A DNA stretch of 36,266 nucleotides from a virus (IMGVR_UViG_2529292919_000024), one strand, 5' to 3'; counted from the first letter of the stretch, positions 1 through 36,266 are shown. The notes: generated from the letters alone by a model not told the origin. Program-made: numbers and translations.

Positions 1-696
1 TCACTTAGGGTATGGCTGAACCCTGAATAGCTTGGTGTTTAGCCGCTTCCTTGCTCGCTTGTTCAGGAATCTGATGTAGCGATACTGATTAAATTTGTGC
101 ACCACGGCACGCTCTTTATTAGCCCGTAAATACACGCCTCGTTGTCCACCTCGCTTAATCGCGTTCATCGTTATCTCGTGATACCACTCACCATCCAGCT
201 CGTAGAACGTACTTTCATGACTGCCAATAAAATCAAAATTCGACGCCTGATACACAACGCCTGCGCGTCCGCAGCGTTCGTCAGCAAAGGACTGAACCCA
301 CTCCACTGACGGATACAGTAATCTGATAACTTTCAGCGCGTAGCTGATGGCCCGTGATTCAGAGTTGCGGGGCATGTCGTCGTGTAGCCACATGCGGTTC
401 AACTCCATATAGCCCCGGTTATCCGTTTCAAGCACGACACGACGACCTGAGTTGGGGTTAAGGGCATATCCCCACTGGAGAACGCCAACCAGATCGCGTC
501 CGCTGAATACCCCCAGGTGAAGGTAAGAGTTATTCACAAAACGGCGGGAATAGTGCTTTGTCTGAATAATTGTGCGGGCTAGCCAGCAGGATATGGTTTC
601 AACGCGCAGCTCCTTTGAACCATAGCCAACAATCTGGCCTTCATACTCAATAACGCACGGTTTCGTCAGAATGCGTGATTTCTTCTCTTTTCCCAC
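1..696 (-). CDS. mom: Mom DNA-modification protein (adenine N6 acetamido modification, anti-restriction)
   Basis: ORF 1..726 runs to the window edge and its sequence matches Mu Mom as I recall it. The likely start is GTG at 696..694, preceded by GGAG at a 7-nt spacing and giving 231 aa. The in-frame ATG at 726 has no Shine-Dalgarno sequence. The start overlaps the com 3' end, as in Mu. Confidence 0.85.
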
Positions 697-835
697 AATG
701 TTTCTCCGTGGGATGCTCGCAGGCATTCAGCATTATGATGTGACGTTTGCAACGCGGACACCTGATTTCAATGTGAACAAAGGAATCCGCCTTAAATAAC
801 AGTTTGTTGCAGTTTTTACAGCGAATTGATTTCAT
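647..835 (-). CDS. com: Com zinc-finger translational activator of mom
   Basis: 62-aa [16 protein letters not shown]...CPRCKRH with a C4 zinc-ribbon motif, near-identical to Mu Com as recalled. Strong RBS AAAGGAGGTGAG before the ATG; overlaps the mom start. Confidence 0.92.
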
Positions 836-944
836 CTCACCTCCTTTGCATCAATTCGCCACTATCTTAAAAAACATCGTGGGTTAAGTGTGGTTATTAG
901 GGCATAATCGATCTGTATTACCGATCGATTTGATTGATTCGATC
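836..944 (-). promoter_or_regulatory. Pmom late promoter region with upstream Dam GATC cluster
   Basis: The minus-strand sense reads CGATGTTTTTTAAGAT, a T6 run abutting the -10-like TAAGAT (plus 864..874), about 25 nt upstream of the com ATG. Three GATC sites at 910, 923 and 941 overlap the gin stop, matching the Dam/OxyR-sensitive region described for Mu mom. The same T6 plus -10 arrangement recurs upstream of lys. Confidence 0.6.
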
Positions 945-1511
945 GTCGTTTTCTATATGCGTTCGTTTCGCAGGGTGTTTTTTATACAGAGTTGAGAGGG
1001 CCACATCGTAGATCAATGCGACCTGCTTGCGGGGGATTCCTTGTGCTAATAAACGCCCGGCCTGCTCCCACTCTGCTTTGGTTAGTTTAGGTGGTCGCCC
1101 ACCAATACGGCCTTTATTTCTGGCGGCAGCAAGTCCAGCCATCGTTCGCTCGATAATTAGTTCTCGTTCCATTTCAGCCAGAGCCCCCATAACGTGGAAG
1201 AAAAAACGCCCCATTGGAGAAGATGTGTCTATGCTGTCGGTCAGACTGCGAAAATTAATCCCTCGCTCCCGTAGTTCCCCGACGAGAGAAATCAGATGTT
1301 TCATGCTTCGCCCGAGGCGATCCAGTTTCCAGACAACCAGCGTGTCACCTTTTTGAAGGCGCTTTAAAGCGCGTTTTAATCCCGGTCGGTCTGTCTTTGT
1401 CCCGCTTAATTTATCTTCAAATATTTGTTCACATCCTGCACAAACAAGAGCGTTTCGTTGCAGGTCTGTATTCTGGTCATTTGTTGATACCCTTATATAG
1501 CCAATCAGCAC
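918..1511 (-). CDS. gin: Gin serine recombinase (G-segment DNA invertase)
   Basis: 197-aa ORF beginning MLIGYIRVSTNDQNTDLQRNAL, the resolvase/invertase N-terminal catalytic motif, with a C-terminal HTH. It lies immediately next to a gix site. Start is GTG at 1511 with a GGGAG Shine-Dalgarno sequence. Confidence 0.93.
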   Translation of the reverse strand: MLIGYIRVSTNDQNTDLQRNALVCAGCEQIFEDKLSGTKTDRPGLKRALKRLQKGDTLVVWKLDRLGRSMKHLISLVGELRERGINFRSLTDSIDTSSPMGRFFFHVMGALAEMERELIIERTMAGLAAARNKGRIGGRPPKLTKAEWEQAGRLLAQGIPRKQVALIYDVALSTLYKKHPAKRTHIENDDRINQIDR

Positions 1512-1565
1512 TCTGGATCTCCCGTTTAAAAGCGCAAATCATGCCATGCAGGCCGGAAACAGCCA

Positions 1566-1599
1566 TTATCCAAAACCTCGGTTTACAGGAAACGGTAAA
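1566..1599. repeat. gix inversion site / 34-bp inverted repeat (gin-proximal)
   Basis: TTATCCAAAACCTCGGTTTACAGGAAACGGTAAA; its reverse complement recurs at 4510..4543 with one mismatch in the 26-bp core site (C versus G at core position 12); a second mismatch lies just outside the 34 bp. The 26-bp core matches the Gin recombination site as recalled. Confidence 0.9.
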
Positions 1600-2536
1600 T
1601 CAGGCTTCTGGCGCATTACAGAAAAAACAGAACGGCGCAGATATTCCAGGAAAAGATACCTTCACCAAAAATATTGGTGCCTGCCGCGCATATAGCGCAT
1701 GGCTGAATATTGGTGGCGATAGTCAGACCTGGACAACCGCACAATTCATTTCGTGGCTGGAGAGTCAGGGGGCATTTAACCATCCTTACTGGATGTGCAA
1801 AGGCTCATGGGCTTATGCAAACAATAAGGTCATTACAGATACAGGTTGCGGAAATATTTGTCTTGCAGGTGCTGTGGTGGAAGTTATTGGCACTCGCGGC
1901 GCAATGACCATACGCGTTACCACGCCGAGTACGTCCATCGGCGGCGGAATCACTAACGCTCAATTCACTTATATTAATCATGGTGATGCTTACGCTCCTG
2001 GCTGGCGACGAGACTACAACACGAAAAACCAGCAGCCTGCATTTGCTTTAGGGCAAACAGGAAGCAGGGTTGCAAATGATAAAGCTGTTGGCTGGAACTG
2101 GAATAGCGGCGTTTATAATGCAGATATCAGTGGCGCATCGACATTAATCCTCCACTTTAATATGAATGCGGGGAGTTGCCCTGCTGTACAGTTCCGCGTG
2201 AATTACAGAAATGGCGGTATCTTTTATCGTTCAGCGCGTGATGGTTATGGCTTTGAAGCTAACTGGTCAGAGTTTTACACCACAACACGCAAACCCTCTG
2301 CGGGAGATGTTGGTGCATATACGCAGGCAGAATGTAACTCAAGGTTTATTACAGGTATTCGCCTTGGCGGTCTGTCATCTGTTCAGACATGGAATGGTCC
2401 TGGCTGGTCTGACAGGTCAGGTTATGTCGTTACTGGTTCAGTTAACGGAAACCGTGATGAATTAATTGATACAACTCAGGCAAGGCCAATTCAGTATTGC
2501 ATTAATGGAACGTGGTATAACGCAGGGAGTATTTAA
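1568..2536 (+). CDS. Tail fibre alternative variable part Sv' (expressed only after G inversion, fused to Sc)
   Basis: Open frame continuous through the gix site with no start of its own. Its first residues after the gix site (IQNLGLQETVN) parallel S after its gix site ([11 protein letters not shown]), and the C-terminus (...IQYCINGTWYNAGSI) is paralogous to the S C-terminus. Confidence 0.8.
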   Translation: MQNLGLQETVNQASGALQKKQNGADIPGKDTFTKNIGACRAYSAWLNIGGDSQTWTTAQFISWLESQGAFNHPYWMCKGSWAYANNKVITDTGCGNICLAGAVVEVIGTRGAMTIRVTTPSTSIGGGITNAQFTYINHGDAYAPGWRRDYNTKNQQPAFALGQTGSRVANDKAVGWNWNSGVYNADISGASTLILHFNMNAGSCPAVQFRVNYRNGGIFYRSARDGYGFEANWSEFYTTTRKPSAGDVGAYTQAECNSRFITGIRLGGLSSVQTWNGPGWSDRSGYVVTGSVNGNRDELIDTTQARPIQYCINGTWYNAGSI

Positions 2537-2538
2537 TT

Positions 2539-3072
2539 ATGATGCACTTAAAAAACATTACTGCTGGCAATCCTAAAACAAAAGAGCAATACCAGCTAAC
2601 AAAGCAATTTAACATCAAATGGCTTTATTCAGATGATGGAAAAAACTGGTATGAGGAACAAAAGAATTTCCGGCCAGACACATTGAAAATGGCCTATGAC
2701 CATAACGGCGTTATTATTTGTATTGAAAAGGATGTTTCAGCAATTAATCCGGAAGGCGCAAGCGTCGTTGAATTACCTGATATTACAGCAAATCGCCGGG
2801 CTGATATTTCGGGTAAATGGATGTTCAAAGATGGCGCAGTGATAAAGCGAACTTATACCGGGGAAGAGCAGAGGCAACAGGCGGAAAATGAAAAGCAAAG
2901 CCTGTTGCAACTTGTCAGGGATAAAACCCAGCTATGGGACTCACAGCTACGGCTGGGCATCATTTCCGACGAGAATAAACAAAAATTAACCGAGTGGATG
3001 CTCTATGCGCAGAAAGTCGAATCTACAGACACCTCCAGCCTGCCAGTAACGTTTCCAGAACAACCAGAATGA
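2539..3072 (+). CDS. Tail fibre assembly protein U' (alternative)
   Basis: 177-aa paralogue of U with the same N-terminus ([21 protein letters not shown]). The stop/RBS/start junction with Sv' mirrors the S-U junction. Confidence 0.85.
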   Translation: MMHLKNITAGNPKTKEQYQLTKQFNIKWLYSDDGKNWYEEQKNFRPDTLKMAYDHNGVIICIEKDVSAINPEGASVVELPDITANRRADISGKWMFKDGAVIKRTYTGEEQRQQAENEKQSLLQLVRDKTQLWDSQLRLGIISDENKQKLTEWMLYAQKVESTDTSSLPVTFPEQPE

Positions 3073-3075
3073 GAC

Positions 3076-3102
3076 AAGGCCCGCTATCGGGCCTTAATTT
3101 TT
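3076..3102. terminator. Intrinsic terminator hairpin between convergent U' and U
   Basis: AAGGCCCG-CTAT-CGGGCCTT stem-loop followed by a T5 run on the plus strand. It sits between the two convergent 3' ends in the middle of the G segment, so it can serve whichever orientation is expressed. Confidence 0.6.
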
Positions 3103-3628
3103 ATTCAGGCTTTTGTGGCCATTCAGGATTTGCCGTATCCACACGGCTGACCAGAACACTGTAGCGCTCCCATGCTTCCAGTCGGCTACGCTCCTCATCT
3201 GTTGCCATGTTCAGCCTGACAGCGCGTTCCAGTGGCTGAATAACGCTTTCTGCTTCAGAAAGCAACGCGGCCTTTTGTGATTCGGCCTGTTGTTGCAGTT
3301 CCTGTTCTGTATATTCCCTCTTTACTACTTTACCATACAGAAACATCCATTTTCCGTTATTGTCTGCGCGACGATTTGCCGTAATATCAGGAACTTCAAC
3401 TATGCTTAGCCCTTCAGGATTAATAGTTGAAACGTCTTTACTGACAGCAACGATGATGTTGTTCTCATCGTAAGCAATTTTTATGGTGTCTGGCTGAAAA
3501 TTCTTTTGTTCCTCATACCAGTTTTTGCCATCTTCGCAAAAGAGCCATACCACGCCCGCTTTTTCAGTTAGCTGGTATTGTTCTTTTGTTTTAGGGTTGC
3601 CAGCAGTAATATTTTTTAAGTGCATCAT
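3101..3628 (-). CDS. U: Tail fibre assembly protein U
   Basis: Begins at ATGATG directly after the S stop, with GGAG upstream; 175 aa; paralogue of U'. The ORF-track start at 3664 is an in-frame extension overlapping S. Confidence 0.85.
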
Positions 3629-3629
3629 C

Positions 3630-5039
3630 TTAAACACTCCCCACGTTGTACCATATTCCCCCAATCAATTTCTGAATTGGCCTTCTGGCAACAGTGTCGA
3701 CAAGATCATCCGCATTGCCGTTAATTGCGGCTGTTAAAACATAACCTGACGCATCGCCAAAGCCGTAGTCGCGCCATACGTTTTTATATTCAATGCTGCC
3801 AAGACGAATATCCCGAACGACATGATTATGCAGCCATGTGCTTAACCAGTTGTTTTCCCACACTGAACCATAAATATCGCCATTAGACGCAACTTGCGCA
3901 CCACTTCCCAGAGCGAAACCGCCATCCCTTTTAAAGATGAAGTCACCACCACCATCTGAACCGTTATTAATATGAACACCATCACCACCGTTATCTTTCC
4001 ACAAAAACATACGAATACTTCCGTCTTCGTTGGTGAATGTAATGTGGTGGCGGTAATTACTTTTTAATCTAAAACTGCTGCAATTAGATTCAATATCTTT
4101 ATAAAGATGTAATCCTAACCCATCAATATGTCCGATGCGCGAACCATTTGAATAGAAGCTAATAATACCATCTCCATCTTGCCTAAATCCGGTGTCGTTA
4201 TCTCCCAGAACAATGGAGTTTTCACCCAGTGCGTTATCAGTAGCACCAATAGCTAGACCTCCTTCAATTTTGGCCCCGTGGCTGACATATATAGCACCTG
4301 TTCTCAGATTTATAGCGAATGGCCTTAATGGGCCGATATCACCGTTTTCGCCTTGTCCTTCAGCCGTCGGAATGAAATGAAGAAAATCTTCTGAACGACG
4401 GAAAATAAGACCGAAGGCATCATTGAAAATTCGCAGCGCATTCACCGTGCCAATTTTCAGTTCTCCGGTCATTTTATCGCCGGAACGCTGAACGGCGTTA
4501 CCAGCCTTGTTTACCGTTTCCTGTAAACCGACGTTTTGGATAAACAGCGGCTTATTGGGAATATCTGCTCCGTTCCGGTCTTTTGCCAGACGGGCATTGG
4601 CATTATCCATCGCAATTTTCACCGCTTTTGCGGTGGCTGCCAGCGTTTCACTGGGGCTGTCAGTGGCACTGGTTAGCTGAACGAGTCCTTTTTTGTTCAG
4701 GCTGGCATCATAGATATCCAGATTTTCACGTGCTGTACGCTGTGCTGATACCCCGGCAATTTTAATTTCGCTGAGGTTATTTTTTATCAGCAGCGCGTTC
4801 TTGTTCATGATGGCTTTAATGGACAGTGCAAGCTGGTTTAATTTTGTTTTATCCGGTTGAATACCGGCTTCTTCCAGCGTGTTTAATAACTCCGCCTGCA
4901 CAATATTAAACCAGTCCATGCCGGGCCATGTGATAACATTATTCCCGTCACCTTCTGAAAACCAGCGAACGATAGCACTACGCTGGGCGGATACGGGCGG
5001 CATGACGGTTACGCCGCTGTCGTTATCAATATAAAACAT
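3630..5039 (-). CDS. S: Tail fibre protein S (constant Sc plus variable Sv)
   Basis: 469-aa ORF. The gix site lies inside it at 4518..4543, dividing a constant N-terminal part of about 165 aa from the variable part. Glycine-rich, fibre-like composition. Confidence 0.88.
4510..4543. repeat. gix inversion site / 34-bp inverted repeat (inside S)
   Basis: Reverse complement of 1566..1599 with one mismatch in the core and one outside; the central TC crossover dinucleotide is conserved. Confidence 0.9.
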
Positions 5040-5581
5040 TAGTTATCTCCGTCATGGTAAACAAATTTATAAATCTGATGCGCGGGTTTATATTTCTCCA
5101 GTAAACACTCCAGCGCACCCGATTCATAAACACGTAACGGCGTCAGAACATTATCCAGCACCGTTGCGTTGCGATAATTTTTAATACCGTAAATATTGAC
5201 CTGCGTAACCCACTGGCCTTCTGTGGAATCCGTCAGCCTGACGGTAAAACCGTACTGCGCAGCCAGCCATTCATAAAAGCGCCGACTTAGATTGCCGGTC
5301 ATACGCATTTTATTTGCGGCAGCCCGCTGGCGTTCTGACAGGGTGCCGTTTTCGCTGGTACAGTCCGGCAACCCCAGAAATGATTCCCACTCCCCCAGAT
5401 ACCAGCGGGATGTGGAAGGGAAACGCTCCCACAGCATTTGCCGCGCATCATCCGCCGCAGTGGCAATCACGTCACTGATGGCCTGCGCCAGCGCAGATAA
5501 TTTGCTGTCGGGGCTTTTATTCCAGGCAAGCCCTGACGGCAGTAATTGCAGAAAGGCCGTCTGATAGGGTGTTACAGCCAT
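5039..5581 (-). CDS. Tail/baseplate protein (Mu gp48-like)
   Basis: 180-aa ORF immediately upstream of S; its stop overlaps the S start (TAATG). Assigned by synteny. Confidence 0.7.
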   Translation of the reverse strand: MAVTPYQTAFLQLLPSGLAWNKSPDSKLSALAQAISDVIATAADDARQMLWERFPSTSRWYLGEWESFLGLPDCTSENGTLSERQRAAANKMRMTGNLSRRFYEWLAAQYGFTVRLTDSTEGQWVTQVNIYGIKNYRNATVLDNVLTPLRVYESGALECLLEKYKPAHQIYKFVYHDGDN

Positions 5582-6654
5582 TCAATTGTCCCCGGTGTTA
5601 ACAGTTCCGTATTCTCCGAACGCTGGATCTCTGTCGGGAAACGCACTTCAAAATCATCCAGACCGGTAACACCTGCCACCGCACGGATAATACGGGAGGG
5701 GGCAAGTGCGCCGCCCGGCGTCACCTCATTAAAAAACATGGTATTAATGGCGTGGGTAATAGCCTGTTTCAGTTCGGCTGTCTTCGGTGATATATAAATC
5801 CGTGGATTTACCGGCTTTGCCTTTGGCGCAAATACCGTGACATTTACACCATCAGGCTGCCCGACAATCAGGCCGGTGATCGGGTCAGTATGACCGGCGA
5901 TATAATCCGCCACGCGTTCCACGTCTGCCGGTTGTGGAAAAATATTGCTTCGGTTATCCATAACAAACGTCACCCCGACTGTGCCACCGCCTTTCCATGT
6001 CGGAAAACACCAGGCACGGGTAACGCCGCTGACTTCACGCGCCCAGCGAACATAATCAAACTGATTACCGCCGAACGGAGGATACTGGACACGATATTCC
6101 AGCCGTGACAGCAGCTCCGCTGCACTCTCAATATCAGCCCCACCGGAAAACCCTTTTACAGTGATGGCATCGGAAACAACACAGGCAACCGGGGTGATCA
6201 ACGTTAAAAGGGTATTCTCACCGGTATTTCCTGCCTCACCGGCAGCCAGTGCGGTAACGGTAATTTCCGTCGTTCCTGCACGGTCAATCACAATGGCATC
6301 AGCCAGGCTGTAAACCACACCATCAGCACGCTGCCAGCGTGTACCGGCAGGAATGGTGGTCGCTGCCGATGTGGTGACAGTCAGCGGGCCGCTGGCGGCT
6401 GTCGCCTGTTTGCGGCGCACGCCCCAGAACCGGCAGTGCTCCAGCAACTCATCTTCATCTGCTGTCGACGGGATAATCTGCCGTCCAACCCATGAAATAT
6501 GCTCGTGACAACCGGCAGCAAGGCCCGCCTGAGCATAAGCAATGGCACTCAGCGTTTTTTCACGGGCCTGAGGCCAGCTACCCGGCAGGCGCTGTTCAAT
6601 ATTCTGTTCTGTACGGGCAATCAGCGATGATAATGTCGGTGGTGAATAAGCCAT
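5572..6654 (-). CDS. Baseplate J-like wedge protein (Mu gp47-like)
   Basis: 360-aa ORF in the baseplate cluster, assigned by position and size. Confidence 0.75.
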   Translation of the reverse strand: MAYSPPTLSSLIARTEQNIEQRLPGSWPQAREKTLSAIAYAQAGLAAGCHEHISWVGRQIIPSTADEDELLEHCRFWGVRRKQATAASGPLTVTTSAATTIPAGTRWQRADGVVYSLADAIVIDRAGTTEITVTALAAGEAGNTGENTLLTLITPVACVVSDAITVKGFSGGADIESAAELLSRLEYRVQYPPFGGNQFDYVRWAREVSGVTRAWCFPTWKGGGTVGVTFVMDNRSNIFPQPADVERVADYIAGHTDPITGLIVGQPDGVNVTVFAPKAKPVNPRIYISPKTAELKQAITHAINTMFFNEVTPGGALAPSRIIRAVAGVTGLDDFEVRFPTEIQRSENTELLTPGTIEWL

Positions 6655-7092
6655 TTAAACCCCGTTAAATGCTGCTTTAAACTCATAAGGAATAACGGAA
6701 CCATCCGGTAATGTCAGTGCAATGTAGAGGTATAACCAGCCCTGATGTAACTGTTCCGCTCTGACGTTAATCGCACTTACCCGGCCCGCTGTTTTCAGCC
6801 ATTCCAGCGCCTCTTCGGCATACCCTCTGGCGCGTTCCAGCGTATCCGGTGTGGCTTTTTCACGTGATAACAGCCACAACCGCGAACCGATGGGGCGGTC
6901 GCGGTAACTGTCACCCCACCATCCACGGCGATCATCTGAACCATCCGGCAGCGTGTCAGAATCCAGCGCGCGCCGGTCGGTAAACAGGGAGATTGTCACA
7001 TCGGTCGTCAGACTGTCGTCGGTCAGCATATCAATGCCATCCTGTGCAATATCGCCGCGTCCGTTCGTCCAGATAATGGCTAAATCGGTCAT
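6655..7092 (-). CDS. Baseplate protein (Mu gp46-like, GP46/gp25-like)
   Basis: 145-aa ORF with ATGA overlap to the upstream gene; assigned by synteny. Confidence 0.7.
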   Translation of the reverse strand: MTDLAIIWTNGRGDIAQDGIDMLTDDSLTTDVTISLFTDRRALDSDTLPDGSDDRRGWWGDSYRDRPIGSRLWLLSREKATPDTLERARGYAEEALEWLKTAGRVSAINVRAEQLHQGWLYLYIALTLPDGSVIPYEFKAAFNGV

Positions 7093-7682
7093 TGCATCGG
7101 CCCCGTGGTTCCGCCGCTGTCGCCGCGGTGGATATGCTTATCCGTCGATTTGCCATTGATGATGGCATCCGGGGCAGTAATATTGCTGTCGAACTGGCTT
7201 TTACCTTTAACGCCCAGACCTTTCTGGATCTCAACGTCGCCGGTAAACGTGGTTCTGGGTGTATCAACGGTCATACTTTCATCAGCGTAAATCTCAACCG
7301 TTTTACAGGTAATGATGCAGCGCCCGTCCTTTGTCAGCCTGATACGATGTCCCTCGTGGTGGTAAATGCCTGCATCACCCGGTTCAAGATTTGTCGGGCG
7401 GTAGCGGCGGTCTTCCACCACAACGGCAATCCCCTGATCACGTTGTGCACCCACACAGGCAATCAGCGCCTCTGCGCCCGGCAGAGGAACGCTGAAATGC
7501 CCGTAATTTTGCAGGCGCTCCACTTCATCAGATTCCTCATCATCCAGCAGACCGACCTGCAGGTTCTGAACCTTTCGCCCGTCGTTAATCACGTTAACAA
7601 CGGCACGCGCAAGCATCAGACGCACACGACGCATCAGCGGTGTCAGCAGGCGGTTCATGGCGGAATCATTTACTCTTTCCAC
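7089..7682 (-). CDS. Baseplate spike / assembly protein (Mu gp45-like)
   Basis: 197-aa ORF in the baseplate cluster. Confidence 0.7.
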   Translation of the reverse strand: MERVNDSAMNRLLTPLMRRVRLMLARAVVNVINDGRKVQNLQVGLLDDEESDEVERLQNYGHFSVPLPGAEALIACVGAQRDQGIAVVVEDRRYRPTNLEPGDAGIYHHEGHRIRLTKDGRCIITCKTVEIYADESMTVDTPRTTFTGDVEIQKGLGVKGKSQFDSNITAPDAIINGKSTDKHIHRGDSGGTTGPMQ

Positions 7683-10289: not shown

Positions 10290-10293
10290 GGTT

Positions 10294-25954: not shown

Positions 25955-26039
25955 ACCGCCACCGGCAATCGTTGCCGCCAGCAGTGCGGCTTTCAGTTTT
26001 TGGGTATCCCCGCCATCATGCTTCCCTGAAAAAATGCTC

Positions 26040-26533: not shown

Positions 26534-26545
26534 ATTTTCCCCCGG

Positions 26546-26665: not shown

Positions 26666-26674
26666 GGTGCCCCT

Positions 26675-27248: not shown

Positions 27249-27294
27249 GATGATTTCCCCCGGTACGGTTATTCATCACAGGATATTGAGGACG

Positions 27295-27318
27295 TAAAAA
27301 AGCCGGATTAACCGGCTT
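27295..27318 (-). terminator. Early-operon intrinsic terminator (t9.2-like), possibly overlapping the middle-promoter activator site
   Basis: On the minus strand, AAGCCGG-TTAAT-CCGGCTT followed by a T run, 7 nt after the mor stop. The dyad could double as a Mor-binding element for the middle promoter. Confidence 0.65.
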
Positions 27319-27324
27319 TACTGT

Positions 27325-28262: not shown

Positions 28263-28292
28263 TTGCTCACCTCTCATATTAAGGAATGAGAT

Positions 28293-28709
28293 ATGAAAAT
28301 TGATTATGACGAGATAGCCAGAATATTTGATGTTTTTCTGGAGGCCGACACCGCATTCATTCGACTGGAAGATGTCGGCTGGGATCGTTCTCAGCGGCAC
28401 AGCGACAGCCATCAGAAGCTGGTTTTCCATCTTCTGTTGCTGGTTGAAAATGGTTTTATCAGCAACAGATATCTGGAAACAGGCACCGCAAAAAGCATTG
28501 GTCTCACCCCAACAAGCCTCGGATATTCATATTCAGGCACCAGTGTCAGACTCACACAAGATGGTCATGATTTTGCGAAAGCACTACATCAAAAACCAAT
28601 TCTTGAGCGCATAAAACAGGACCTTGCCGACGCCCCGATGACGCTCGTAACAGACGTCGGCAAACAGTGGTTAACCTCGTTTCTTAAAAAGAAACTCGGG
28701 ATTGAATAG
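28293..28709 (+). CDS. Opposite-strand hypothetical protein, DUF2513-like small winged-helix-type protein (candidate moron/accessory gene)
   Basis: 138-aa ORF with a strong RBS (AAGGAATGAGAT then ATG) and protein-like composition. It is the only plus-strand gene between c and the G segment. It diverges from gemA with 30 bp between the starts and overlaps the upstream early gene's 3' end convergently by 39 nt. Confidence 0.65.
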   Translation: MKIDYDEIARIFDVFLEADTAFIRLEDVGWDRSQRHSDSHQKLVFHLLLLVENGFISNRYLETGTAKSIGLTPTSLGYSYSGTSVRLTQDGHDFAKALHQKPILERIKQDLADAPMTLVTDVGKQWLTSFLKKKLGIE

Positions 28710-28982
28710 TTCCCGGTTCATACGTTGCAGCACATCAAGGGCGGCGACAGCCGCCACTTTATCGTTACCATCAGCAATAGTGCGGAGATTTTCAATAATC
28801 CAGTGAGGACTCAGTGACTCAGCAATAATGCCAAACCGGTACGCCATGACTTCATCAATAGCTTTTTCATGAGACGGCTCATATACAAAATTCACAAAGT
28901 CATGCACTTCTTTTTTCGGCAAACCACCGGCAATCAGCAGGGCGGCAAGCTCTTCTGATTTTGAAAATACACCATTATTCAT
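28671..28982 (-). CDS. Hypothetical early protein (Mu gp15-position)
   Basis: 103 aa from the ATG at 28982, which has an AAGGTGAG Shine-Dalgarno sequence. The ORF-track GTG at 28997 is a short extension. Confidence 0.6.
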   Translation of the reverse strand: MNNGVFSKSEELAALLIAGGLPKKEVHDFVNFVYEPSHEKAIDEVMAYRFGIIAESLSPHWIIENLRTIADGNDKVAAVAALDVLQRMNRELFNPEFLFKKRG

Positions 28983-28983
28983 A

Positions 28984-29166
28984 TCACTCACCTTCACAAT
29001 TCATGCACGCCGTGTCATCGCCCATATCGCAGTGGTTGCATTTCTGCCCGCCACAATGAGGGCACTCTTTCAGATATTCAGGGGATTCATTACCGCAGGT
29101 CGGGCATTCCTGTTTCACCGTGGTAAATTTCCCCAGCCACGAATACGATGTTTCATTGTTTTCCAT
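28984..29166 (-). CDS. Small zinc-ribbon protein
   Basis: 60 aa with CPTC...CPHC...CNHC...CMNC, eight Cys in four CxxC pairs. Confidence 0.6.
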   Translation of the reverse strand: MENNETSYSWLGKFTTVKQECPTCGNESPEYLKECPHCGGQKCNHCDMGDDTACMNCEGE

Positions 29167-29683
29167 TGTTTACCTCCGCCTGTTTTTGCGCCCGGATAAA
29201 TTCGTCAGAAAGGATTTCAGTCATGCGGCCCTGTGCGGGAGTCATCCCTGTCATGACGTAAATCACATCACCAACACGGAACCACCGGAGCGGGCCGAAT
29301 ATTGTTGCGCTGAAATCCAGTCCCAGTGCGGGTAAGAGAGCGTCAGTACGGGCATAAGTGACCGGAATATTCTCCTGCCATATTTTCGCCAGCTCTTTTG
29401 ACTGCTCCCGCAGATGTGCAGGAATGCGCGATGTTCTTGGCCTGCAACTGTTACCTGATGCGGAGCGTTGTACAGTCCACAACTCCGGCGAGAAAGGTCG
29501 CTCATTCCCCGGAAAATTCACGCCATGAAAATGACGCCCACCAATACCTGTGCTGAATACTGACCGGCAACCACAACCCAGAACCTTATCAAGATGGCGG
29601 GCTTCTTCGCGTAGTTTCAGGCAGTCCGCCATAAACTGGTCCCATGCCAGCAGTGCTGCGGGATTTGACGTTTTAAAAAACAT
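29153..29683 (-). CDS. Hypothetical early protein (Mu gp13-position)
   Basis: 176 aa from the ATG at 29683, with AGGAGG upstream and a TGATG junction to the preceding gene. Confidence 0.6.
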   Translation of the reverse strand: MFFKTSNPAALLAWDQFMADCLKLREEARHLDKVLGCGCRSVFSTGIGGRHFHGVNFPGNERPFSPELWTVQRSASGNSCRPRTSRIPAHLREQSKELAKIWQENIPVTYARTDALLPALGLDFSATIFGPLRWFRVGDVIYVMTGMTPAQGRMTEILSDEFIRAQKQAEVNNGKQ

Positions 29684-30222
29684 CACGCCACCTCCTGCAC
29701 CGCTGCGGGAGCCGGAGAACAATCAAGAATGAGATAACGCAGTACATGGTCGGTGATATTCCAGGCGCTTGAACTGCAAATAAACCGCCCCAGCCGGATA
29801 TCGATATAAGCCATCACAAAACGGGGCATTCCCTGTTTGCACATCTCGTCATCCACTTCTGCAACGATGTGAACGGACTCACAGGTCAGCACGCCTGTTG
29901 CAAACTCTTTTGCCAGCGCGGGGATAGTATTACCTTCCACCCAGGGTAATGAGCGACGCCAGTTGCACCACACCGCATCATCAACAGCAGGCTGCTCAGT
30001 TGTGTTTCGTCTTACAGGCGGCGTCGGACGCGGGCGCGGAACGTCATAAAATCCGTTGCATTCGGTGAGCACTCCGGCATCAACCGCATCAACCGCATCA
30101 CGCAGGAAATACACCATTGACGAGGGCAGCATATTCATTTTTTCAGCCAGAACCCCGCAGGTCAGGCGTCCGTAAGCCCGTAATAATGTGCTGACACCAT
30201 TCAGAATTTTTGCATCAACCAT
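29683..30222 (-). CDS. Hypothetical early protein (Mu gp12-position)
   Basis: 179-aa ORF downstream of gam. Confidence 0.6.
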   Translation of the reverse strand: MVDAKILNGVSTLLRAYGRLTCGVLAEKMNMLPSSMVYFLRDAVDAVDAGVLTECNGFYDVPRPRPTPPVRRNTTEQPAVDDAVWCNWRRSLPWVEGNTIPALAKEFATGVLTCESVHIVAEVDDEMCKQGMPRFVMAYIDIRLGRFICSSSAWNITDHVLRYLILDCSPAPAAVQEVA

Positions 30223-30320
30223 GTTTTATTCCTCAGTAATCTGTTTCAGGCGCGAGCAATCCCCTGACGCATCGCGCCATAATTAAAAGAATGTGAATTA
30301 ATTAAATATTAATGGTGGTA

Positions 30321-30845
30321 TTAAATACCGGCTTCCTGTTCAAACGGAATAATGGAAAAATCTTCAATTCCCGATTTAACCGTAATTCCGGCAACACCTG
30401 CGACGGCTTTTGGTTCCAGTAAAATCGCCTCCTTGTTGATTTCCTGCTTCGTGCGAATAAAGCGTTGCAGGCCAAGACGCTCCAGCGTTTCCATCACTGC
30501 ATCCATACCACGAATACTTACTGATGGTGGACGGACCCGCCACGATACATCACCGGTGACAAGATTCGCCGTCTTCACTTTGCCGCCGTTCGTCAGTTCG
30601 TCGCGGTTCGCTTCACACCATCCCTGAACGCCTTTTGAAAGGGTTTCAATATCGGTTTTAATCGGTGCAATCCGGGCCGCAAATTTCTCCGTAATTTCCG
30701 CGATGGCATCATTCATTTCCGTTTCCAGACGTGATGCTTCGCGCTGTAAATCCCCGATGCGTTTAATATCGGTAATCACCGCATCGCGGTTTTGTGGCAC
30801 ATAAGCCGCTGCGGCACTCTTGATACGTTTTGCTGGTTTAGCCAT
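30321..30845 (-). CDS. gam: Gam host-nuclease inhibitor (Ku-like DNA end-binding protein)
   Basis: 174 aa, the size of Mu Gam, with a coiled-coil N-terminus; in the early region at the expected distance from B. Confidence 0.88.
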   Translation of the reverse strand: MAKPAKRIKSAAAAYVPQNRDAVITDIKRIGDLQREASRLETEMNDAIAEITEKFAARIAPIKTDIETLSKGVQGWCEANRDELTNGGKVKTANLVTGDVSWRVRPPSVSIRGMDAVMETLERLGLQRFIRTKQEINKEAILLEPKAVAGVAGITVKSGIEDFSIIPFEQEAGI

Positions 30846-30864
30846 AAATTAAAGCTCCTGTTAA

Positions 30865-31164
30865 TTAATATCCGCTGTATACAATGCTGGATACAGCTCG
30901 ATTGCTTAATTCCATCTTTCGGGCAATGACATGAATATCCAGTCCTTCTTTATAAAGTTCACGACATAAATATTTGTCGTGTTCACTGATTCGGTATACA
31001 CACAATGATATTCCGTGCCTTCTGGCATGTGCCCGGAGGGCGGTTGTGGCGACTTTCAGTTTTTCCGCCATTTCTTCAACGGTCATTTTCCCGACGTTGG
31101 CTTCGATAAATTCCCGGTCTTCGCGTGACCAGCGCTTACGATTACACTTCATGTCAGCCACCAT
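30865..31164 (-). CDS. Small HTH-like DNA-binding protein
   Basis: 99-aa ORF with a TGA-ATG junction to the upstream gene and a helix-turn-helix-like segment (MTVEEMAEKLKVATTALRAHARRHG). Confidence 0.55.
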   Translation of the reverse strand: MVADMKCNRKRWSREDREFIEANVGKMTVEEMAEKLKVATTALRAHARRHGISLCVYRISEHDKYLCRELYKEGLDIHVIARKMELSNRAVSSIVYSGY

Positions 31165-31584
31165 TCAGTACAGCAGAGGCTCGCGCAGTGATGCCGGAAT
31201 ATGCAGCAGCGATAACTGAACCGCTTTCAGGGCAAGCGAGGAATAACAGCAGCGCGCCCAGCCTTTTGCCATTAACCGGTAATCGCGCCAGATACGCTGC
31301 CACATTTCACGGGCTTCAGGGTCTGATGCGCAGATGTATTCCCGGTCCATGACGTACTCCCATAAATCCACGTTGAACGCACCGCCAAATGCAATGGCGC
31401 GGGATATGCTTTCGCCGCAATAACGTGCACAGATGCTGTAATGGTCGAAAGCAATCAGGTAAGTCTTTTCACCACAATCATCAACTTTCCGGGCGCAAAT
31501 AAACTCGCGTAATTCACCACCGTTGTTATTGCGTTCCTGAATTCGGATTAATGCCTGAATTTCATTTCGGGTCTTGACGTTCAT
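31165..31584 (-). CDS. Hypothetical early protein, Cys-containing
   Basis: 139-aa ORF in the early operon. Confidence 0.55.
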   Translation of the reverse strand: MNVKTRNEIQALIRIQERNNNGGELREFICARKVDDCGEKTYLIAFDHYSICARYCGESISRAIAFGGAFNVDLWEYVMDREYICASDPEAREMWQRIWRDYRLMAKGWARCCYSSLALKAVQLSLLHIPASLREPLLY

Positions 31585-31652
31585 TGTCAGCGTTCCTTTG
31601 CGAATTAATGTCTGGCTGTATTCGGGTTATAGCTGAATAATTTCCCCTCAGC

Positions 31653-31874
31653 TTACAGCCCAAGCTCCCTGGCTGATTTCAACAACTCCTCGGTCGCTTT
31701 TTTAATGATTTCAGGAGCCATGCTCTTGATGATGCCTGCCATTACATCATGTGGCCCGGTCTGGTCCTCAGGTGAGGATTCTTCCAGTCGCACATTCATA
31801 TTTACGGCAAAACCTCCATTTTCCTGAAACTCAATATTTCTTGTATTGTTAAATTCAAAGATTACTTTTGCCAT
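31653..31874 (-). CDS. Hypothetical early protein
   Basis: 73-aa acidic ORF. Confidence 0.5.
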   Translation of the reverse strand: MAKVIFEFNNTRNIEFQENGGFAVNMNVRLEESSPEDQTGPHDVMAGIIKSMAPEIIKKATEELLKSARELGL

Positions 31875-31885
31875 TTTGTTTCACC

Positions 31886-32140
31886 TTATTGATTCTGAAT
31901 AACTGCGCTGGCTTTTACCTTCGCGCCTTTTACCTGCTTAAAGAAAACTGCGCTGCACCACGGACAACATGTCAGGGAATCCCGAATTTCCTTTTCGGGT
32001 GAGCATTGCGTCATAATCTGTTCACCGCATCCGGGGCATTTATATGTCGTCAGCGGCACCCCGTGGCACTGACAGTGTTTAACCCATTCAATATATTTTT
32101 CAGCTTTAATACACATCGTTATCTCCAGATAATCTGGCAA
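31886..32140 (-). CDS. Small Cys-rich (zinc-binding) early protein
   Basis: 84 aa with HCQCH...CPGC...CCPWC. Confidence 0.55.
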
Positions 32141-32346
32141 CCATTAAGACGGGCCGTCCATACAGAACGGGCCACCCCGGACTTATGCTCCATAATTCTG
32201 ACCGCGTTTTTTACCAGTTCCACCGGTGGGTAAGTGATTTCAAGAATCGGACGCGCCACGCCGAGATATGATTCATTTACATGACTCCCGCGCGCCTGTA
32301 ACCAATTCTGCGCATCCGTTGCCATTTTTATATTTCGGGCCATCAT
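32119..32346 (-). CDS. kil: Kil-position small protein (host killing / cell-division inhibition in Mu)
   Basis: 75-aa ORF immediately after B, the position and size of Mu kil. The identity rests on synteny only. Confidence 0.5.
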
Positions 32347-32361
32347 AATTTCTTCTCCTTC

Positions 32362-33300
32362 TTAATTACGCAGCAGCGTTGAAATATCAACGTCCAGGTC
32401 TAATTCACGGAAAGCCTGACGCAGATAATCTTCGTTAACACGCTCACCTTTACCGTGAGCCGTCATGGCGGCAAGGCGAAGTGAATGATTCAGAATACGA
32501 AGCGCACCTGGTTTCTGCGCAATCTGCTGTAATAACTCCAGTTCTTTTTCGCCGTTAATCTGCCAGGCATCCGCAATAGCTTTTACATCGGCTTTTTTGG
32601 TTTTATTAATTGCAGTGCGCTTTGCAATACGGGAAAACAGACGGGCAAATTCAACCGTTCTGTTACCCCCCGTCATATTTGAATAAACCCGGTGATTTCC
32701 CATCAGCACAAGGCCAATACGGGTTGATTCCTGTAACAGGCGGAGTTCTTCCAGAACTTCGGCACCAAGATGATCAGCTTCGTCGATGATAACCAGCCCC
32801 TGTGTACCTTCAAGGCGACGTCGCAGGGCGCGGGAGAGCGGCCCTTTACGGCGTGGTGCGTCATTCATTCCCAGCTCAAACGCCAGTTCAGTAAGACATT
32901 CCAGAACGCTGGCACAGGATGGCGTAATGGTGATCATCCAGACATTGTTATTGGTGCGGCGATATTCACGGGCCGCTTCGGTTTTGCCCACACCAGGATT
33001 GCCACATACAACAGCAATACTTTCAGTCAGGCTGGCAAAACGCATACTTGTCCAGATTTGTTTTACCGTCTGCGTTTCCACAAAGCGGGGCGGTTCAGGT
33101 AGTTCTGCAACTGCATGATATTTTTCCAGCCAGCGTTGCAGAATTTGTGAAACACGCTCGTTATCCCCGTTGTACTTATCATTGATAAAACTACTGATAG
33201 TTCCGGTAGAAAGTCCGCTCTCAAGAGCAATTTGTTTAAAGGTGGTTTCTTCATTTTCTACAAGCGTGCGCAGTCCTGCGCGAATATCGGAAATATTCAT
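32362..33300 (-). CDS. B: Transposition target-capture ATPase B
   Basis: 312 aa with an N-terminal HTH and a Walker A motif (GNPGVGKT); directly after A. Confidence 0.93.
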   Translation of the reverse strand: MNISDIRAGLRTLVENEETTFKQIALESGLSTGTISSFINDKYNGDNERVSQILQRWLEKYHAVAELPEPPRFVETQTVKQIWTSMRFASLTESIAVVCGNPGVGKTEAAREYRRTNNNVWMITITPSCASVLECLTELAFELGMNDAPRRKGPLSRALRRRLEGTQGLVIIDEADHLGAEVLEELRLLQESTRIGLVLMGNHRVYSNMTGGNRTVEFARLFSRIAKRTAINKTKKADVKAIADAWQINGEKELELLQQIAQKPGALRILNHSLRLAAMTAHGKGERVNEDYLRQAFRELDLDVDISTLLRN

Positions 33301-33338
33301 CTGAATAACCTCGTAATTAAATTTTGTTTAAACGTTAA

Positions 33339-35327
33339 TTAAATGGCTTTTTTACGTCTGTTCTGTTCCAGAATATCCAGCGAATGATTCAGATATTCAT
33401 CACGCTCAGTTTCGTATTCATCATCACGCTCCTGATTCTTCACCCGTTCCGTATTACCGGAAGGCCGGAAAATACCAACAATTCGTGATTCTGGTGCTGC
33501 TGGTTCGGCTATCTGCGGCAGCAGTTCAGCAACTTCCAGCGCGTCCATTTGTTTCTGCGCCTTAATGGCTGCTTTAGTTGCAGATTTCAGTTGTTTCTGG
33601 CGGCGGCGATATTCACGGCCTGCCGCAGCATCATTAAATGCAACAGGTGCCAGACATTCCGCTTCACAGATAAACCGACCGTCCAGGGTGTAACAATAAA
33701 CCGTGCTGTGTAGCTGCTGCGGATCAAACCTGACCACAACTTTTTTCACGCCGGCATTCATTAATGCCATGTTGTAATAAACGTTTTTCGCGCCTTTAAG
33801 GGAGCCGCCAACTTTAAGCGTAAACTCGCCTTTGCGTGAAACGTTCACCGCCTCGGCAGGCAGTAACAGCATCCGTTTTTGTTCTTCGGTTGGCTTACGC
33901 ACAATCGTTCTGGCGTATTCACGCTCGAAAACATCATCAAACGAGAGTTTGCCCCCGCACATTTCTGTTTCACGGCCTGTTCTGGCATTGAACATCGCCA
34001 CACCTTCGGCAAGGGTTTTCAGAAACAGCTCTGCATCAACAGCGCGGTTGCCATAGTTATCAGGTTTTGCCTGCGGATTTGGCCCCGTATATGCGCCAGC
34101 CAGTGCCGGATGCTTATCAACGTATTCCTCAAGCCCACCAACACCGAAAGCACGTTCAACAGGTTTTGCCTGGCCCCAGCCTTTACCGGCAACAACGCTT
34201 GTCCAGTGCATTTTCGCACCCATCAGTAAAAACAATCCCTTTGGATCGTCTTCTTTCACCTTAAAGCGGTAGCGATTGGGCGCGCCTCCCGTCAGCCATT
34301 TATTCGCAGCACCACGGGTGTTATCAATGGTGATGTGAAAATCCTCCGGGATACCGTAGCGAGTCACAACATCCATGAACGAGAGGCGAATTGAATCAAT
34401 GTTCTCGCTCACATCGCAGCGCCAGCCCAGAATTTTTCGGGTTTTCACATCCTGCCAGAACCATGTTTTCGGGCGGATCACATCACCGTTAAACCAGCGT
34501 ACAAAGACGTTATGCAGATAACCGTCGCCGTTGATCCACTGCAAGGCGTCCAGGTGTTCCACAGTTCGCTGCTGTGCCGGTATCAGATGCATCAGTGCAT
34601 GTTCACCTTCACGACAGGCAACAACCATTGCCTCGTCCAGTTGCTGAATCCGGCGAAAGGCCGTGGCACGGGAGGGAATACTCCAGCCATGCTCGCGGGC
34701 TGCCAGTTCCAGACGCTCATAACATTTGCGGAAGGCGGGTTTTTCCGGTCGCAGATAATCTGCAATCAGAAACTGCCAGGCATCCTCGTCAAATTCACTT
34801 TTGTGAACATTGCGACGGGATGCACCACGTCCATCAACAAGTGCAGCCGCCCAGTCAGGCTTCGCAAACTTCTGTACCTGGTAATACTTGTCCCGCAAAG
34901 TGGATGCGCTGATCTGGTAATGCCCTGCAACGGTCGCAAAAGCCGTTTTCGTTGAAATCCCCTGGTTCAGCATTTCGTCTGCAGCCTGAACCGCAGGCAA
35001 CCATTTTTCAGCAAGTCTGCGCTGGGAATCGCTGGCTTTATCCCATTTGCTCCACAGCACCTCACGATCATAATCATGGGCTTCCAGCGTGGGGCGGGCG
35101 ATTTCAAAACGGCCCAGGCTTGTTTCAATTCTCCCTTGTTGCAACAGAATTTCAGCACGTAATGCGACAGGGAATGATTTGATATTGAATTCAAATGATA
35201 CACCTTTAGTCCCTGCAACCTGCCTGAACTCCCAGCCTTCTCTTTGTGCCTTACGTGTAATGTTAGTGGCTTGCTTTGGTAAACCTGCCAAACCGAGCAA
35301 CTCTTTTGCTGTATACCATTCTTTCAT
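33339..35327 (-). CDS. A: DDE transposase A
   Basis: 662 aa. From about residue 60 it matches MuA as recalled ([15 protein letters not shown]...) and ends ...NRRKKAI. The N-terminal roughly 60 aa differ from Mu, as described for D108. Confidence 0.95.
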
Positions 35328-35334
35328 AGCGCAC

Positions 35335-35556
35335 CTAGTATCGAGACGGCCAAATATCTTGCGGTGTCATTCCCAGTGCATCTGCAATGATTTTCTCCGC
35401 TTTCGGATATCTCTTATCCAAAGCATTTTTTAATGTTGAAGACGAAAGATGATTAGATCTTCCCAATTCAGCTAGTGACATATTGCGTTTTCGTAGCTCT
35501 GCAACGATGTCAGCTCTGTGCCAATCTTGGCGGTTAGTTCTTTTATTCATATGCAT
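35335..35556 (-). CDS. ner: Ner early-region repressor (Cro-like)
   Basis: 73-aa HTH protein, the size of D108 Ner (Mu Ner is 75 aa), directly upstream of A. Confidence 0.88.
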
Positions 35557-35741
35557 TTCATGTAATCCTTTCAGATTCCCCCGTGAGCTACGCTATAAAG
35601 TAGCTCACGGCATATCGTGCAATGTAGTGTGGAATCACTTTCAAATCAATAGTGATTTGAAAGGATTTGCCATGATTTCATATAACAGCATGATTTTTAT
35701 ATGAATTTATTTTGTCTCTATTGAAATCACTAGGATTTTAA
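35557..35741. promoter_or_regulatory. Immunity/operator region between ner and c (divergent Pe and Pc, Ner and repressor operators)
   Basis: A perfect 11-bp inverted repeat CCGTGAGCTAC with an 8-bp AT spacer lies at 35581..35610. A second dyad, CTTTCAAATCA-ATAG-TGATTTGAAAG, lies at 35638..35663. There are also AT-rich -10/-35-like hexamers on both strands. Confidence 0.7.
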
Positions 35742-36266
35742 ATGATGTCTTTTGAAATCAAAGAATGGTTTAATGCGAAAGAGCTGGAAGGGATGCCTGG
35801 TGTACCAAAGTTGGCGACTAACATTACCAGGAAAGCTGTGGCGGAAGATTGGGTAAAACGTCAGCGTCACGGTGGGAAAGGTGTCGCTTATGAGTATCAC
35901 ATCAACAGTCTGCCAGAAGAAACACGCAGGGCCATTAAAGGAGCCTCACTTTCTGATAAACCAGTGCATACATCAATCGCCCATACAGTTGATGAGAGGC
36001 TAATTTATGCAATGAGCTTCTTAACACCAGATGAGCAGGCCGCAGCTGTGGAGATCATTCGTGTGGCAGGGATTAAAGGACTTATGCCTACAATTGTCAG
36101 TAAAGATAAGGCATTAGAGGCATTAGGGATTACTGTGGAGCAACAGAAAACCCTGCAAACTCTTCAGGCATTACCACCGGAAAAAGTGAGAGAGATTTTG
36201 TCTCAGTATGAAGGCAAAGAACATAATTTCCCTGTAAGAGAAAACGATGTAAAGAAAGCTGTATAA
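35742..36266 (+). CDS. c: Lysogeny repressor c (D108-type)
   Basis: 174-aa ORF divergent from ner. Its N-terminal DNA-binding domain is homologous to the transposase N-terminus (compare [18 protein letters not shown] with [18 protein letters not shown]). Ends ...KKAV. Confidence 0.85.
   Translation: MMSFEIKEWFNAKELEGMPGVPKLATNITRKAVAEDWVKRQRHGGKGVAYEYHINSLPEETRRAIKGASLSDKPVHTSIAHTVDERLIYAMSFLTPDEQAAAVEIIRVAGIKGLMPTIVSKDKALEALGITVEQQKTLQTLQALPPEKVREILSQYEGKEHNFPVRENDVKKAV

Follow-up and report, generated by a model that had tools for sequence, protein, structure and literature searches.

A Mu-like prophage with a D108-type immunity region in Escherichia coli php

Few phages have been studied as thoroughly as Mu and D108. 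Lysis by Mu depends on gp22, its sole endolysin, which needs an N-terminal SAR domain for export; Mu has no holin, and lysogens in which 22 is knocked out fail to lyse (PMC9239132). Shigella phage SfMu is a Mu-like phage that carries D108-type c and ner genes (PMC4406740).

The 36,266-nucleotide stretch of DNA analyzed here (the window) belongs to the familiar family of phage Mu, is unexceptional within it, and has a repressor region of the D108 kind. All that sets it apart from the textbook phages is the exchange of a few cassettes and small defects in two genes. Almost certainly, it forms the bulk of a Muvirus prophage that is mosaic between Mu and D108, measures 36,720 bp as a whole element on contig AIEY01000058.1 and entered the 3' end of E. 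coli php (yhfV) by Mu-type transposition.

Gene order, immunity region and exchanged cassettes

An earlier note, made from sequence without database searches, described the window as a near-complete D108-type Mu-like transposable prophage trimmed exactly at mom and c. Alignment and per-gene tblastn both agree with that description. Positions 1-3 read TCA, which is the mom stop codon in reverse complement, the c stop codon TAA occupies 36264-36266, and the window runs as the reverse complement of the Mu map. The whole-length alignment to Mu and D108 that the note had proposed is free of rearrangements, and no essential gene is missing. Apart from gp14, the window has the full set of D108 genes between c and mom, both included. 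Among all 56 D108 proteins, full-length tblastn matches in Mu order are found for all but three, namely gp14, which has no match in the window and whose gene is replaced; gene 56, which lies past mom and outside the window; and S, which is matched in its N-terminal part alone. The order is that of Mu throughout: c, ner, A, B, the semi-essential early genes, mor, C, lys, head, tail, the invertible G segment with gin, com and mom. A, B, gin, the G segment, the Mor/C cascade and the head and tail genes are intact in sequence, and the genes the element would need appear to be all present, with lysis a possible exception. Rfam and tRNA scans of the window found nothing.

The note's assignment of a D108-type left-end immunity region, with a 73-aa Ner, a 174-aa repressor and a heterologous start of the transposase, is confirmed by protein identities. 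The c repressor (35742-36266, plus strand; its stop codon is the window end) has 174 aa, is 98.9% identical to D108 and 28.6% identical to Mu, and differs from D108 by two substitutions (N50Y, V80A). The c-ner intergenic control region (35557-35741), which holds the operators, enhancer and divergent promoters, shows 4 differences from D108 over its 185 positions. The 73-aa product of ner (35335-35556, minus strand) is 100% identical to D108 and 47% identical to Mu. The DDE transposase A (33339-35327, minus strand; 662 aa) is D108-type over about its first 63 aa: residues 1-63 are 39% identical to Mu, the remainder 98.8%, and the DNA match to Mu ends at 35139. Like c and ner, the operators and the DNA-binding domain at the N terminus of A are D108-like and heterologous to Mu. 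A has HTH_Tnp_Mu_1, HTH_Tnp_Mu_2, DDE_2 and Mu-transpos_C domains in Mu architecture, with equivalents of MuA D269, D336 and E392 completing an intact catalytic triad. Its partner B (32362-33300, minus strand; 312 aa), the AAA+ target-capture and transposition ATPase, has a Phage-MuB_C domain. A Mu DNA-binding domain is also among the domains called.

By analogy with established Mu biology, the repressor would bind the c-ner operators and keep the early operon silent. After derepression, transposition by A and B would replicate the genome, the late genes would be turned on by Mor followed by C, and Gin inversion would alternate two fiber sets. Residues 6-58 of c and the A N-terminal domain are 58% identical. 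The two are probably homologous and would co-vary, as both would recognize the same operator and enhancer DNA, which may explain why the D108-type heterology reaches about 63 codons into A.

The early operon continues with gp6 and kil (31895-32346, minus strand) and a D108-type gene 7 (31605-31874, minus strand). The earlier note saw no disrupted gene other than lys, a claim that fails on two counts. In gene 7, GAA has become TAA at codon 74 (stop at 31653-31655), leaving 73 of 89 aa, and the gp14/gp15 region (28263-28972) has been swapped for unrelated DNA. The 73-aa gene 7 product has an identical counterpart in three other assemblies, and the stop allele is common to prophages only 98.4% identical; as a circulating allele it gives no sign of recent decay. 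Gp13, gp12, gp11, gam, gp9 and gp8, all semi-essential early genes, follow at 28984-31584 (minus strand), with an in-frame 9-bp tandem duplication in gp11 at about 30077-30092. In place of Mu/D108 gp14 stands a gene of about 104 aa assigned to phrog_1988 (28671-28985, minus strand). At the Mu gp15 position, antisense to the early operon, lies a 138-aa accessory ORF assigned to phrog_585 (28293-28709, plus strand). The sole Pfam match of this ORF, to DUF2513, is weak and sub-threshold; NCBIfam returns nothing, and a PDB sequence search gives chance-level matches only. A Foldseek search of the PDB with its confident model gives no match at E <= 0.001, and above that threshold the predicted fold weakly resembles winged-helix regulators. 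A PADLOC scan of six early or accessory proteins yields no defense-system match, the one hit being negligible at E = 0.0099. Mor (129 aa) and gemA (183 aa) occupy 27325-28262 (minus strand), and downstream of mor lies the early-operon terminator (27290-27318, minus strand), GCCGGTTAATCCGGC followed by a T-run of 6 T, against 7 T in D108, Mu and the prophages of E. coli MIN10 and 22KM0354. The middle operon of gp18, gp19, gp20 and the late activator C (26111-27248, minus strand) is intact.

The structural genes are conserved. The head and packaging module (16442-24181, minus strand) is full length and 98-100% identical to D108, comprising in order T (major head), I/Z (protease/scaffold), gp31.5, G, gp30 (F), portal gp29, large terminase gp28 and gp27. 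The tail and head-tail joining module (5039-16375, minus strand), also full length and 95-100% identical to D108, comprises gp48, gp47, gp46, gp45, P, N, tape measure gp42, gp41.5 and gp41, then tube gp40, sheath L, gp38, gp37, gp36 and gp35. The region of the central strong gyrase site (18560-18640, minus strand) has 2 mismatches to Mu in the aligned columns covering the stretch, and the Mu gyrase cut at 17879/17880 (NC_000929 annotation) falls at about window 18617-18618.

Inverted repeats at 1566-1621 and 4488-4543 enclose the invertible G segment of about 3 kb (1566-4543); the repeats are 56 nt long, 82% complementary and 2866 nt apart and contain gix-type TTATCCAAAACC.CGGTTTACAGGAAAC. The silent alternative set (1643-3072, plus strand), made up of the S' variable part (1643-2536) and U' (2539-3072), is 97-98% identical to D108. 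The tail fiber S (3630-5039, minus strand; 469 aa) lies in the expressed orientation. U (3101-3628, minus strand; 175 aa) is a tail fiber assembly protein 82% identical to D108 and Mu. The N-terminal 194 aa of S are 93% identical to Mu. The C-terminal part of about 275 aa, the receptor-binding part (DNA 3684-4488), is neither that of Mu nor that of D108 and is 96% identical to a prophage of E. coli MIN10. The G-segment invertase gin (918-1511, minus strand; 197 aa, Resolvase domain) is 99% identical to D108. Next come the mom/com upstream control region (836-917), whose sequence is conserved in Mu and D108; com (647-835, minus strand; 62 aa), which activates translation of mom; and the DNA modification gene mom (1-726, minus strand; 241 aa; Pfam Mom, 2.8e-75), whose stop codon is the window start. 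The Mom protein is of Mu type, identical to Mu at 240 of 241 residues and without the 4 extra C-terminal residues of D108.

Prophage ends and insertion site

According to the earlier note, the ends and insertion site could not be assessed. Both do lie outside the window, but they can be read directly on AIEY01000058.1, a contig of GCA_000249115.2 that is 100% identical to the window over 15,039 and 14,614 bases. GCA_000249115.2 is a draft E. coli assembly; a Logan assembly of SRR094165 likewise matches the window at 100% identity for 4.3 kb. Extension along the contig, which the note had suggested, recovers 5'-TG...CA-3' termini with transposase-binding sites at both ends. The left end is TGTAATGGGTCACTTGAAGTACGAAAA and the right end ...TTTTCGTGCGCCGCTTCA; attL is D108-type (339 bp) and attR Mu-type (115 bp). 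The left terminus reads TGTAATGGGT, against TGTATTGATT in 14 of 14 other Mu-type left ends. Its three unusual substitutions, at positions 5, 8 and 9, might weaken the end.

GTGAA, a 5-bp target duplication at a non-specific chromosomal site, flanks the element on both sides at the 3' end of php. Once reconstructed, the empty site matches php-yhfU of E. coli Nissle 1917 at 100% identity; its region is collinear over 11.5 kb, and 5,073 of 5,426 complete E. coli genomes carry the site without interruption. Together, the TG...CA termini and the GTGAA duplication in php prove a simple transpositional insertion in a chromosome. A D108-type left and a Mu-type right could also arise if the DNA were packaged in virions or were an assembly chimera of two Mu-like phages, a reading that is vanishingly unlikely. 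E. coli genes flank the element on either side within a contig of 223,757 bp, and its 5-bp duplication is precise; the flanks and the duplication suffice to reject that reading, and like mosaics occur in complete chromosomes (22KM0354, 99.5% over 17 kb; MIN10, 97.9% over 27.5 kb).

The frameshift in lys

The frameshift that the earlier note reported in lys (gp22, the SAR endolysin; 25502-26016, minus strand) is present: the window reads ATG GCG GGG ATA CCC AAA AAC TGA, where relatives read ...CCA/CCC AAA AAA CTG. One base is lost from the A-run (about 25997-26001) that codes for Lys6-Lys7, and the product ends after 7 codons as M-A-G-I-P-K-N-stop. In the SAR endolysin, Lys6 and Lys7 make release dependent on the gp25 releasin. 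The remaining lys frame has no ATG, GTG or TTG before the GTG at 25954, where a restart would give 150 aa without the SAR anchor. The adjoining gp26, gp25 (DUF2730 releasin), gp24 and spanin gene gp23 with gp23.1 embedded (24193-25518, minus strand) are intact, with the functions of the gp26-gp23 region as assigned previously (PMC9239132). The exact pattern across the frameshifted run has no match in genome_contigs, viral_contigs or metagenome_contigs, and it was an exact look-up of the shortened gene 7 product that led to the source contig; runs one base shorter or longer occur in seven assemblies. As to the loss of an essential function that would mark a cryptic prophage, the window offers a lys frameshift, read in an assembly and at a homopolymer.

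Between a real mutation and a homopolymer sequencing error, the choice is roughly even. An error of sequencing or assembly, which has about an even chance of being the explanation, would leave the true prophage with a complete SAR endolysin of 171 aa and full proficiency for lysis. Relative to all four close relatives, the window has only two 1-base indels, both contractions of long A/T runs: the lys A-run, and T7 to T6 in the mor terminator. Other assemblies with a wrong-length lys run show extra homopolymer indels within a few kb, and such extra nearby indels are a usual mark of error-prone reads. The run length is intact in less biased samples, namely in 18 of 18 IMG/VR contigs and in 10 of 10 loci with the same gp23 allele, and the source assembly is a draft. 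However, two other 7-base runs in the window are uncontracted, just two such events occur over 36 kb, and genuine slippage mutations also prefer homopolymers. If the frameshift is real, for which the chance is somewhat under even, the endolysin would be 7 residues long or would restart at GTG 25954, unanchored and cytoplasmic, in a holin-less phage. The prophage would then be lysis-defective, decaying or domesticated: it would repress, transpose and perhaps assemble particles with no release. The frameshift does stand in the sequence as given, the dependence of Mu on gp22 and its SAR domain without a holin (PMC9239132) points to a lysis defect, and the truncated gene 7 and unusual left terminus fit early decay. 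The artefact evidence counts against this, as do the intact state of the remaining 50-odd genes at 95-100% identity and the circulation of the gene 7 stop among other prophages.

It is very doubtful that the Lys6-Lys7 A-run is hypermutable, serving as a population lysis off/on switch or as a -1 slippage bypass at A_AAA_AAC-TGA, with the window as one 'off' variant. Slightly less likely still is a rescue of the lys frame at the A-run by -1 slippage of the ribosome or by transcriptional slippage, or a role for the run as a phase-variable lysis switch. A -1 shift at CCC AAA AAC|TGA would bring back the Lys frame, a stop codon comes directly after the run, four other assemblies read CCA AAA AAC TGA (the canonical heptamer A_AAA_AAC in the right frame), and both -1 and +1 run lengths are seen, in different assemblies. 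Yet the heptamer of the window, C_AAA_AAC, is non-canonical, the frame is intact in nearly all relatives, and the variant assemblies appear error-prone. The case illustrates how a single homopolymer call can settle whether a prophage is scored intact or defective.

Comparison with known Mu-like phages and prophages

Judged by sequence, the element is a mosaic of D108-type parts (left end, immunity region, gene 7), Mu-type parts (mom and the 115-bp right end) and parts that match neither (the S variable part and the gp14/gp15 cassette). It offers a natural example of modular exchange within one phage species, involving an immunity module, a host-range cassette, an antisense accessory gene and a right end, and of a precisely resolved transposition into php. 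Its significance is otherwise small, as the family is well studied and prophages of this type lie in many sequenced E. coli: a match to the early region is present in 95 of 5,426 complete genomes, and the index of the protein collection places the gp23 allele in 2,356 blocks.

D108 (NC_013594 / GQ357916) has the same gene order and 97-98% DNA identity over about 96% of the window (98.1% over 4489-28262, 97.4% over 28973-36266 and 93.5% over 5-3683), and shares attL, c (98.9%), ner (100%), the operator region, the A N-terminal domain and gene 7. Unlike D108, the element has a Mu-type mom C-terminus and 115-bp right end, lacks the D108-specific gene 56, carries an unrelated S variable part, a replaced gp14 and the antisense 138-aa ORF, and has a frameshifted lys and a shortened gene 7. 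Identification as phage D108 itself was rejected on the Mu-like Mom of 241 aa (245 aa in D108), the Mu-type attR and the missing gene 56. Mu (NC_000929) has the same layout, 98% DNA identity over 4489-28262, and a shared mom (240/241), attR, gyrase site and Mor/C cascade, but differs in its heterologous immunity genes (c 29%, ner 47%, A residues 1-63 39%), gene 7, gp14/gp15 and S variable part.

Two prophages in complete E. coli chromosomes resemble the window closely. That of 22KM0354 (NZ_CP151071) is 99.5% identical over window 19000-36266 and shares the 138-aa antisense ORF and the D108-type left end, but has an intact lys run, a full-length gene 7 and another insertion site. That of MIN10 (NZ_CP069677) is 97.9% identical over 1-27498 in a single piece and has an S fiber of the same type (96% identical protein), but again an intact lys run and another insertion site. 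SfMu (KP010268), with 95.3% identity over 91% of window 24000-36266, is more diverged and carries other accessory genes in its early region (PMC4406740).

Collinearity and gene content

The element is a natural mosaic of Mu and D108, a prophage with both ends and its target duplication present in a public Escherichia coli draft genome, and it belongs to a well-understood kind. Escherichia phages Mu (NC_000929) and D108 (NC_013594) are both collinear with the window in opposite orientation, as judged from the ORF list and megablast against phage records. By local blastn, DNA identity is 93.5% to D108 and 93.3% to Mu over positions 1/5-3628/3683, and 98.1% and 98.0%, respectively, over 4489-28262. 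Neither phage matches at 3684-4488 or 28263-28972. From 28973 to 36266, D108 matches at 97.4%, whereas the Mu match is patchy, is missing at 31600-31841 and ends at 35139. The per-kilobase identity table of the window depicts a fine-grained mosaic, as is typical for this phage group, and contains no rearrangement relative to the reference phages. The window is indeed trimmed at gene boundaries, starting with the reverse-complemented mom stop and ending at the c stop codon.

Every annotated D108 protein was used as a tblastn query against the window. Full-length, stop-free matches, mostly 95-100% identical, are returned for the early and middle genes (c, ner, A, B, kil, gp6, gp8, gp9, gam, gp11, gp12, gp13, gemA, mor, gp18-20 and C), the late genes (gp23-gp30, G, gp31.5, I/Z, T, gp35-38, L, gp40, gp41, gp41.5, gp42, N, P and gp45-48) and the genes of the right part (U, U', S', gin, com and mom), with Mu order retained. 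This order and the blastn collinearity bear out the end-to-end Mu layout proposed in the earlier note. The exceptions are gp14, gene 56, the tail fibre gene S, lys and gene 7. Gp14 finds no match because it has been replaced in the window, and the D108 position of gene 56 is beyond mom, hence outside the window. The catalytic D-D-E residues of transposase A are present, the G segment is flanked by 56-nt inverted repeats (1566-1621 and 4488-4543), and the central gyrase site region, the c-ner control region and the com/mom control region are near-identical to those of the reference phages. Gp11 is three residues longer than in D108, Mu and the prophage of E. coli 22KM0354 (NZ_CP151071) because a 9-bp stretch is tandemly duplicated in frame at ~30077-30092 (GCATCAACC twice).

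Prophage ends and insertion at php

Extending the window to the termini and the 5-bp target duplication, the check proposed in the earlier note, locates all of them on the source contig. AIEY01000058.1 (assembly GCA_000249115.2; 223,757 bp) is 100% identical to the window over the compared 15,039 and 14,614 bases. The left end (TGTAATGGGTCACTTGAAGTACGAAAAAAACC) begins 339 bp outside c, the right end (...TTTTCGTGCGCCGCTTCA) lies 115 bp past mom, and the duplication GTGAA adjoins both, delimiting a prophage of 36,720 bp (source record positions 31491-68210). Joined with a single GTGAA, the flanks reproduce php-yhfU of E. coli Nissle 1917 at 100% identity, and they are collinear with this genome across 11.5 kb; of 5,426 complete genomes, 5,073 carry the site uninterrupted. 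The insertion swaps the last 7 residues of Php (NPSQFFQ) for 31 residues encoded by attL (php at 4415-5365 of L006, the stretch of source contig around php and attL), and yhfU, yhfT and yhfS, which lie downstream of php, are now separated from it by the 36.7-kb prophage.

At the left terminus (L006 5270-5279), positions 5, 8 and 9 are substituted, giving TGTAATGGGT in place of TGTATTGATT. The latter sequence is found in all 14 other Mu-type left ends, leaving the source prophage the only deviant among the 15 examined. Since the 5-bp duplication is intact, the variant end has been functional at least once.

The flanks of the closest relative prophage, in 22KM0354, are unrelated: fimbrial genes border attL, and attR is followed by a truncated FAD-binding gene that adjoins glcC. 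The five bases adjoining one end do not match those at the other, ACCAG versus GCGGC (17590-17640 of L002 and 3700-3730 of L005, two stretches of that chromosome). Because this genome has three Mu-like places, rearrangement between Mu-like copies is possible.

Interrupted reading frames in lys and gene 7

The lys frameshift reported earlier is present in the window sequence, where one A is missing and translation ends after seven codons. The start of lys reads ...CCC AAA AAC TGA in the window, ATG GCG GGG ATA CCA AAA AAA CTG in Mu, D108 and 22KM0354, and ...CCC AAA AAA CTG in the E. coli chromosome MIN10 (NZ_CP069677); the codons hit are Lys6 and Lys7 of gp22. In Mu, which lacks a holin, gp22 is a SAR endolysin and its knock-out prevents lysis (PMC9239132). 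If the frameshift is real, lysis should be abolished; the question of its reality is of local interest only.

The odds that the frameshift is a sequencing or assembly artefact are about even. Against all four close relatives, the window has only two unique 1-base indels, both contractions of long A/T runs: the lys run and a T7 to T6 change in the terminator after mor. Two further 7-base runs of the window are not contracted, however, and genuine slippage mutations likewise favour homopolymer runs. At the terminator (~27290-27295), the window has six T and D108, Mu, MIN10 and 22KM0354 have seven. Other assemblies whose run is one base shorter (-1) or longer (+1) also encode the exact 150-aa truncated lys product. 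Their contigs carry more homopolymer indels nearby, which suggests error-prone reads and makes sequencing error the likelier cause of those variants. The lys run is intact in 18/18 IMG/VR contigs and 10/10 loci with the shared gp23 allele, samples chosen without regard to truncation. A -1 ribosomal slip at the window run would bring back the reading frame, but C_AAA_AAC falls outside the canonical slippery sites and such recoding is unlikely. Other public assemblies have an A-run of -1 (CC-A6) or +1 (CC-A8), and their -1 forms give the heptamer A_AAA_AAC followed by TGA.

Beyond lys, the earlier note saw no other obviously disrupted gene, having missed an internal stop in gene 7, where codon 74 of 89 carries a GAA>TAA change. 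Three other assemblies encode an identical 73-aa product, one with surrounding DNA just 98.4% identical, so this is a circulating allele rather than a sequencing error. Gene 7 lies in the dispensable early region.

Immunity region, replaced cassettes and relation to Mu and D108

The left-end immunity region was correctly assigned to the D108 type. The 174-aa repressor c is 98.9% identical to that of D108 and 28.6% to that of Mu, the 73-aa Ner is 100% and 47% identical, respectively, and four positions of the 185-bp c-ner intergenic region set it apart from D108. A related repressor is that of phage SfMu, which UV can induce (PMC4406740). Residues 1-63 of transposase A are D108-type (39% to Mu), while the remainder is 98.8% identical to Mu. 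In the established picture, the N-termini of the repressor and transposase bind the same operator/enhancer DNA. Their mutual similarity (58% identity over c residues 6-58) fits this shared binding and explains why the heterology extends into A.

Between gp13 and gemA lie a gene of phrog_1988 and, antisense to the early operon, a 138-aa ORF (28293-28709, + strand; phrog_585) that is divergent from gemA and occupies the position of Mu gp15. Its DUF2513 match is weak and sub-threshold. The 29 homologues are all from Enterobacterales where named, and position and orientation are kept in Mu-like prophages of Salmonella and E. coli that have diverged; at the DNA level, no Mu-like phage record contains the ORF. 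The predicted structure is confident (pLDDT 92.8) with just weak, winged-helix-like matches, and defence-system models give no match to it. The ORF may represent a gene that the lysogen expresses.

The first interpretation stands once it is corrected on three points: the right end is Mu-type, gene 7 is truncated, and cassettes have been replaced. The D108-type label holds for the left part, where attL of the source prophage and gene 7 are also D108-type, but not elsewhere. AttR is Mu-type and lacks gene 56, and the 241-aa Mom is identical to Mu Mom at 240 of 241 residues. Neither phage matches the gp14/gp15 cassette or the variable part of S. Conservation of S is limited to the N-terminal ~194 aa. 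For its receptor-binding part, the C-terminal ~275 aa, neither Mu nor D108 gives a DNA match, whereas the fibre of the prophage in MIN10 is 96% identical.
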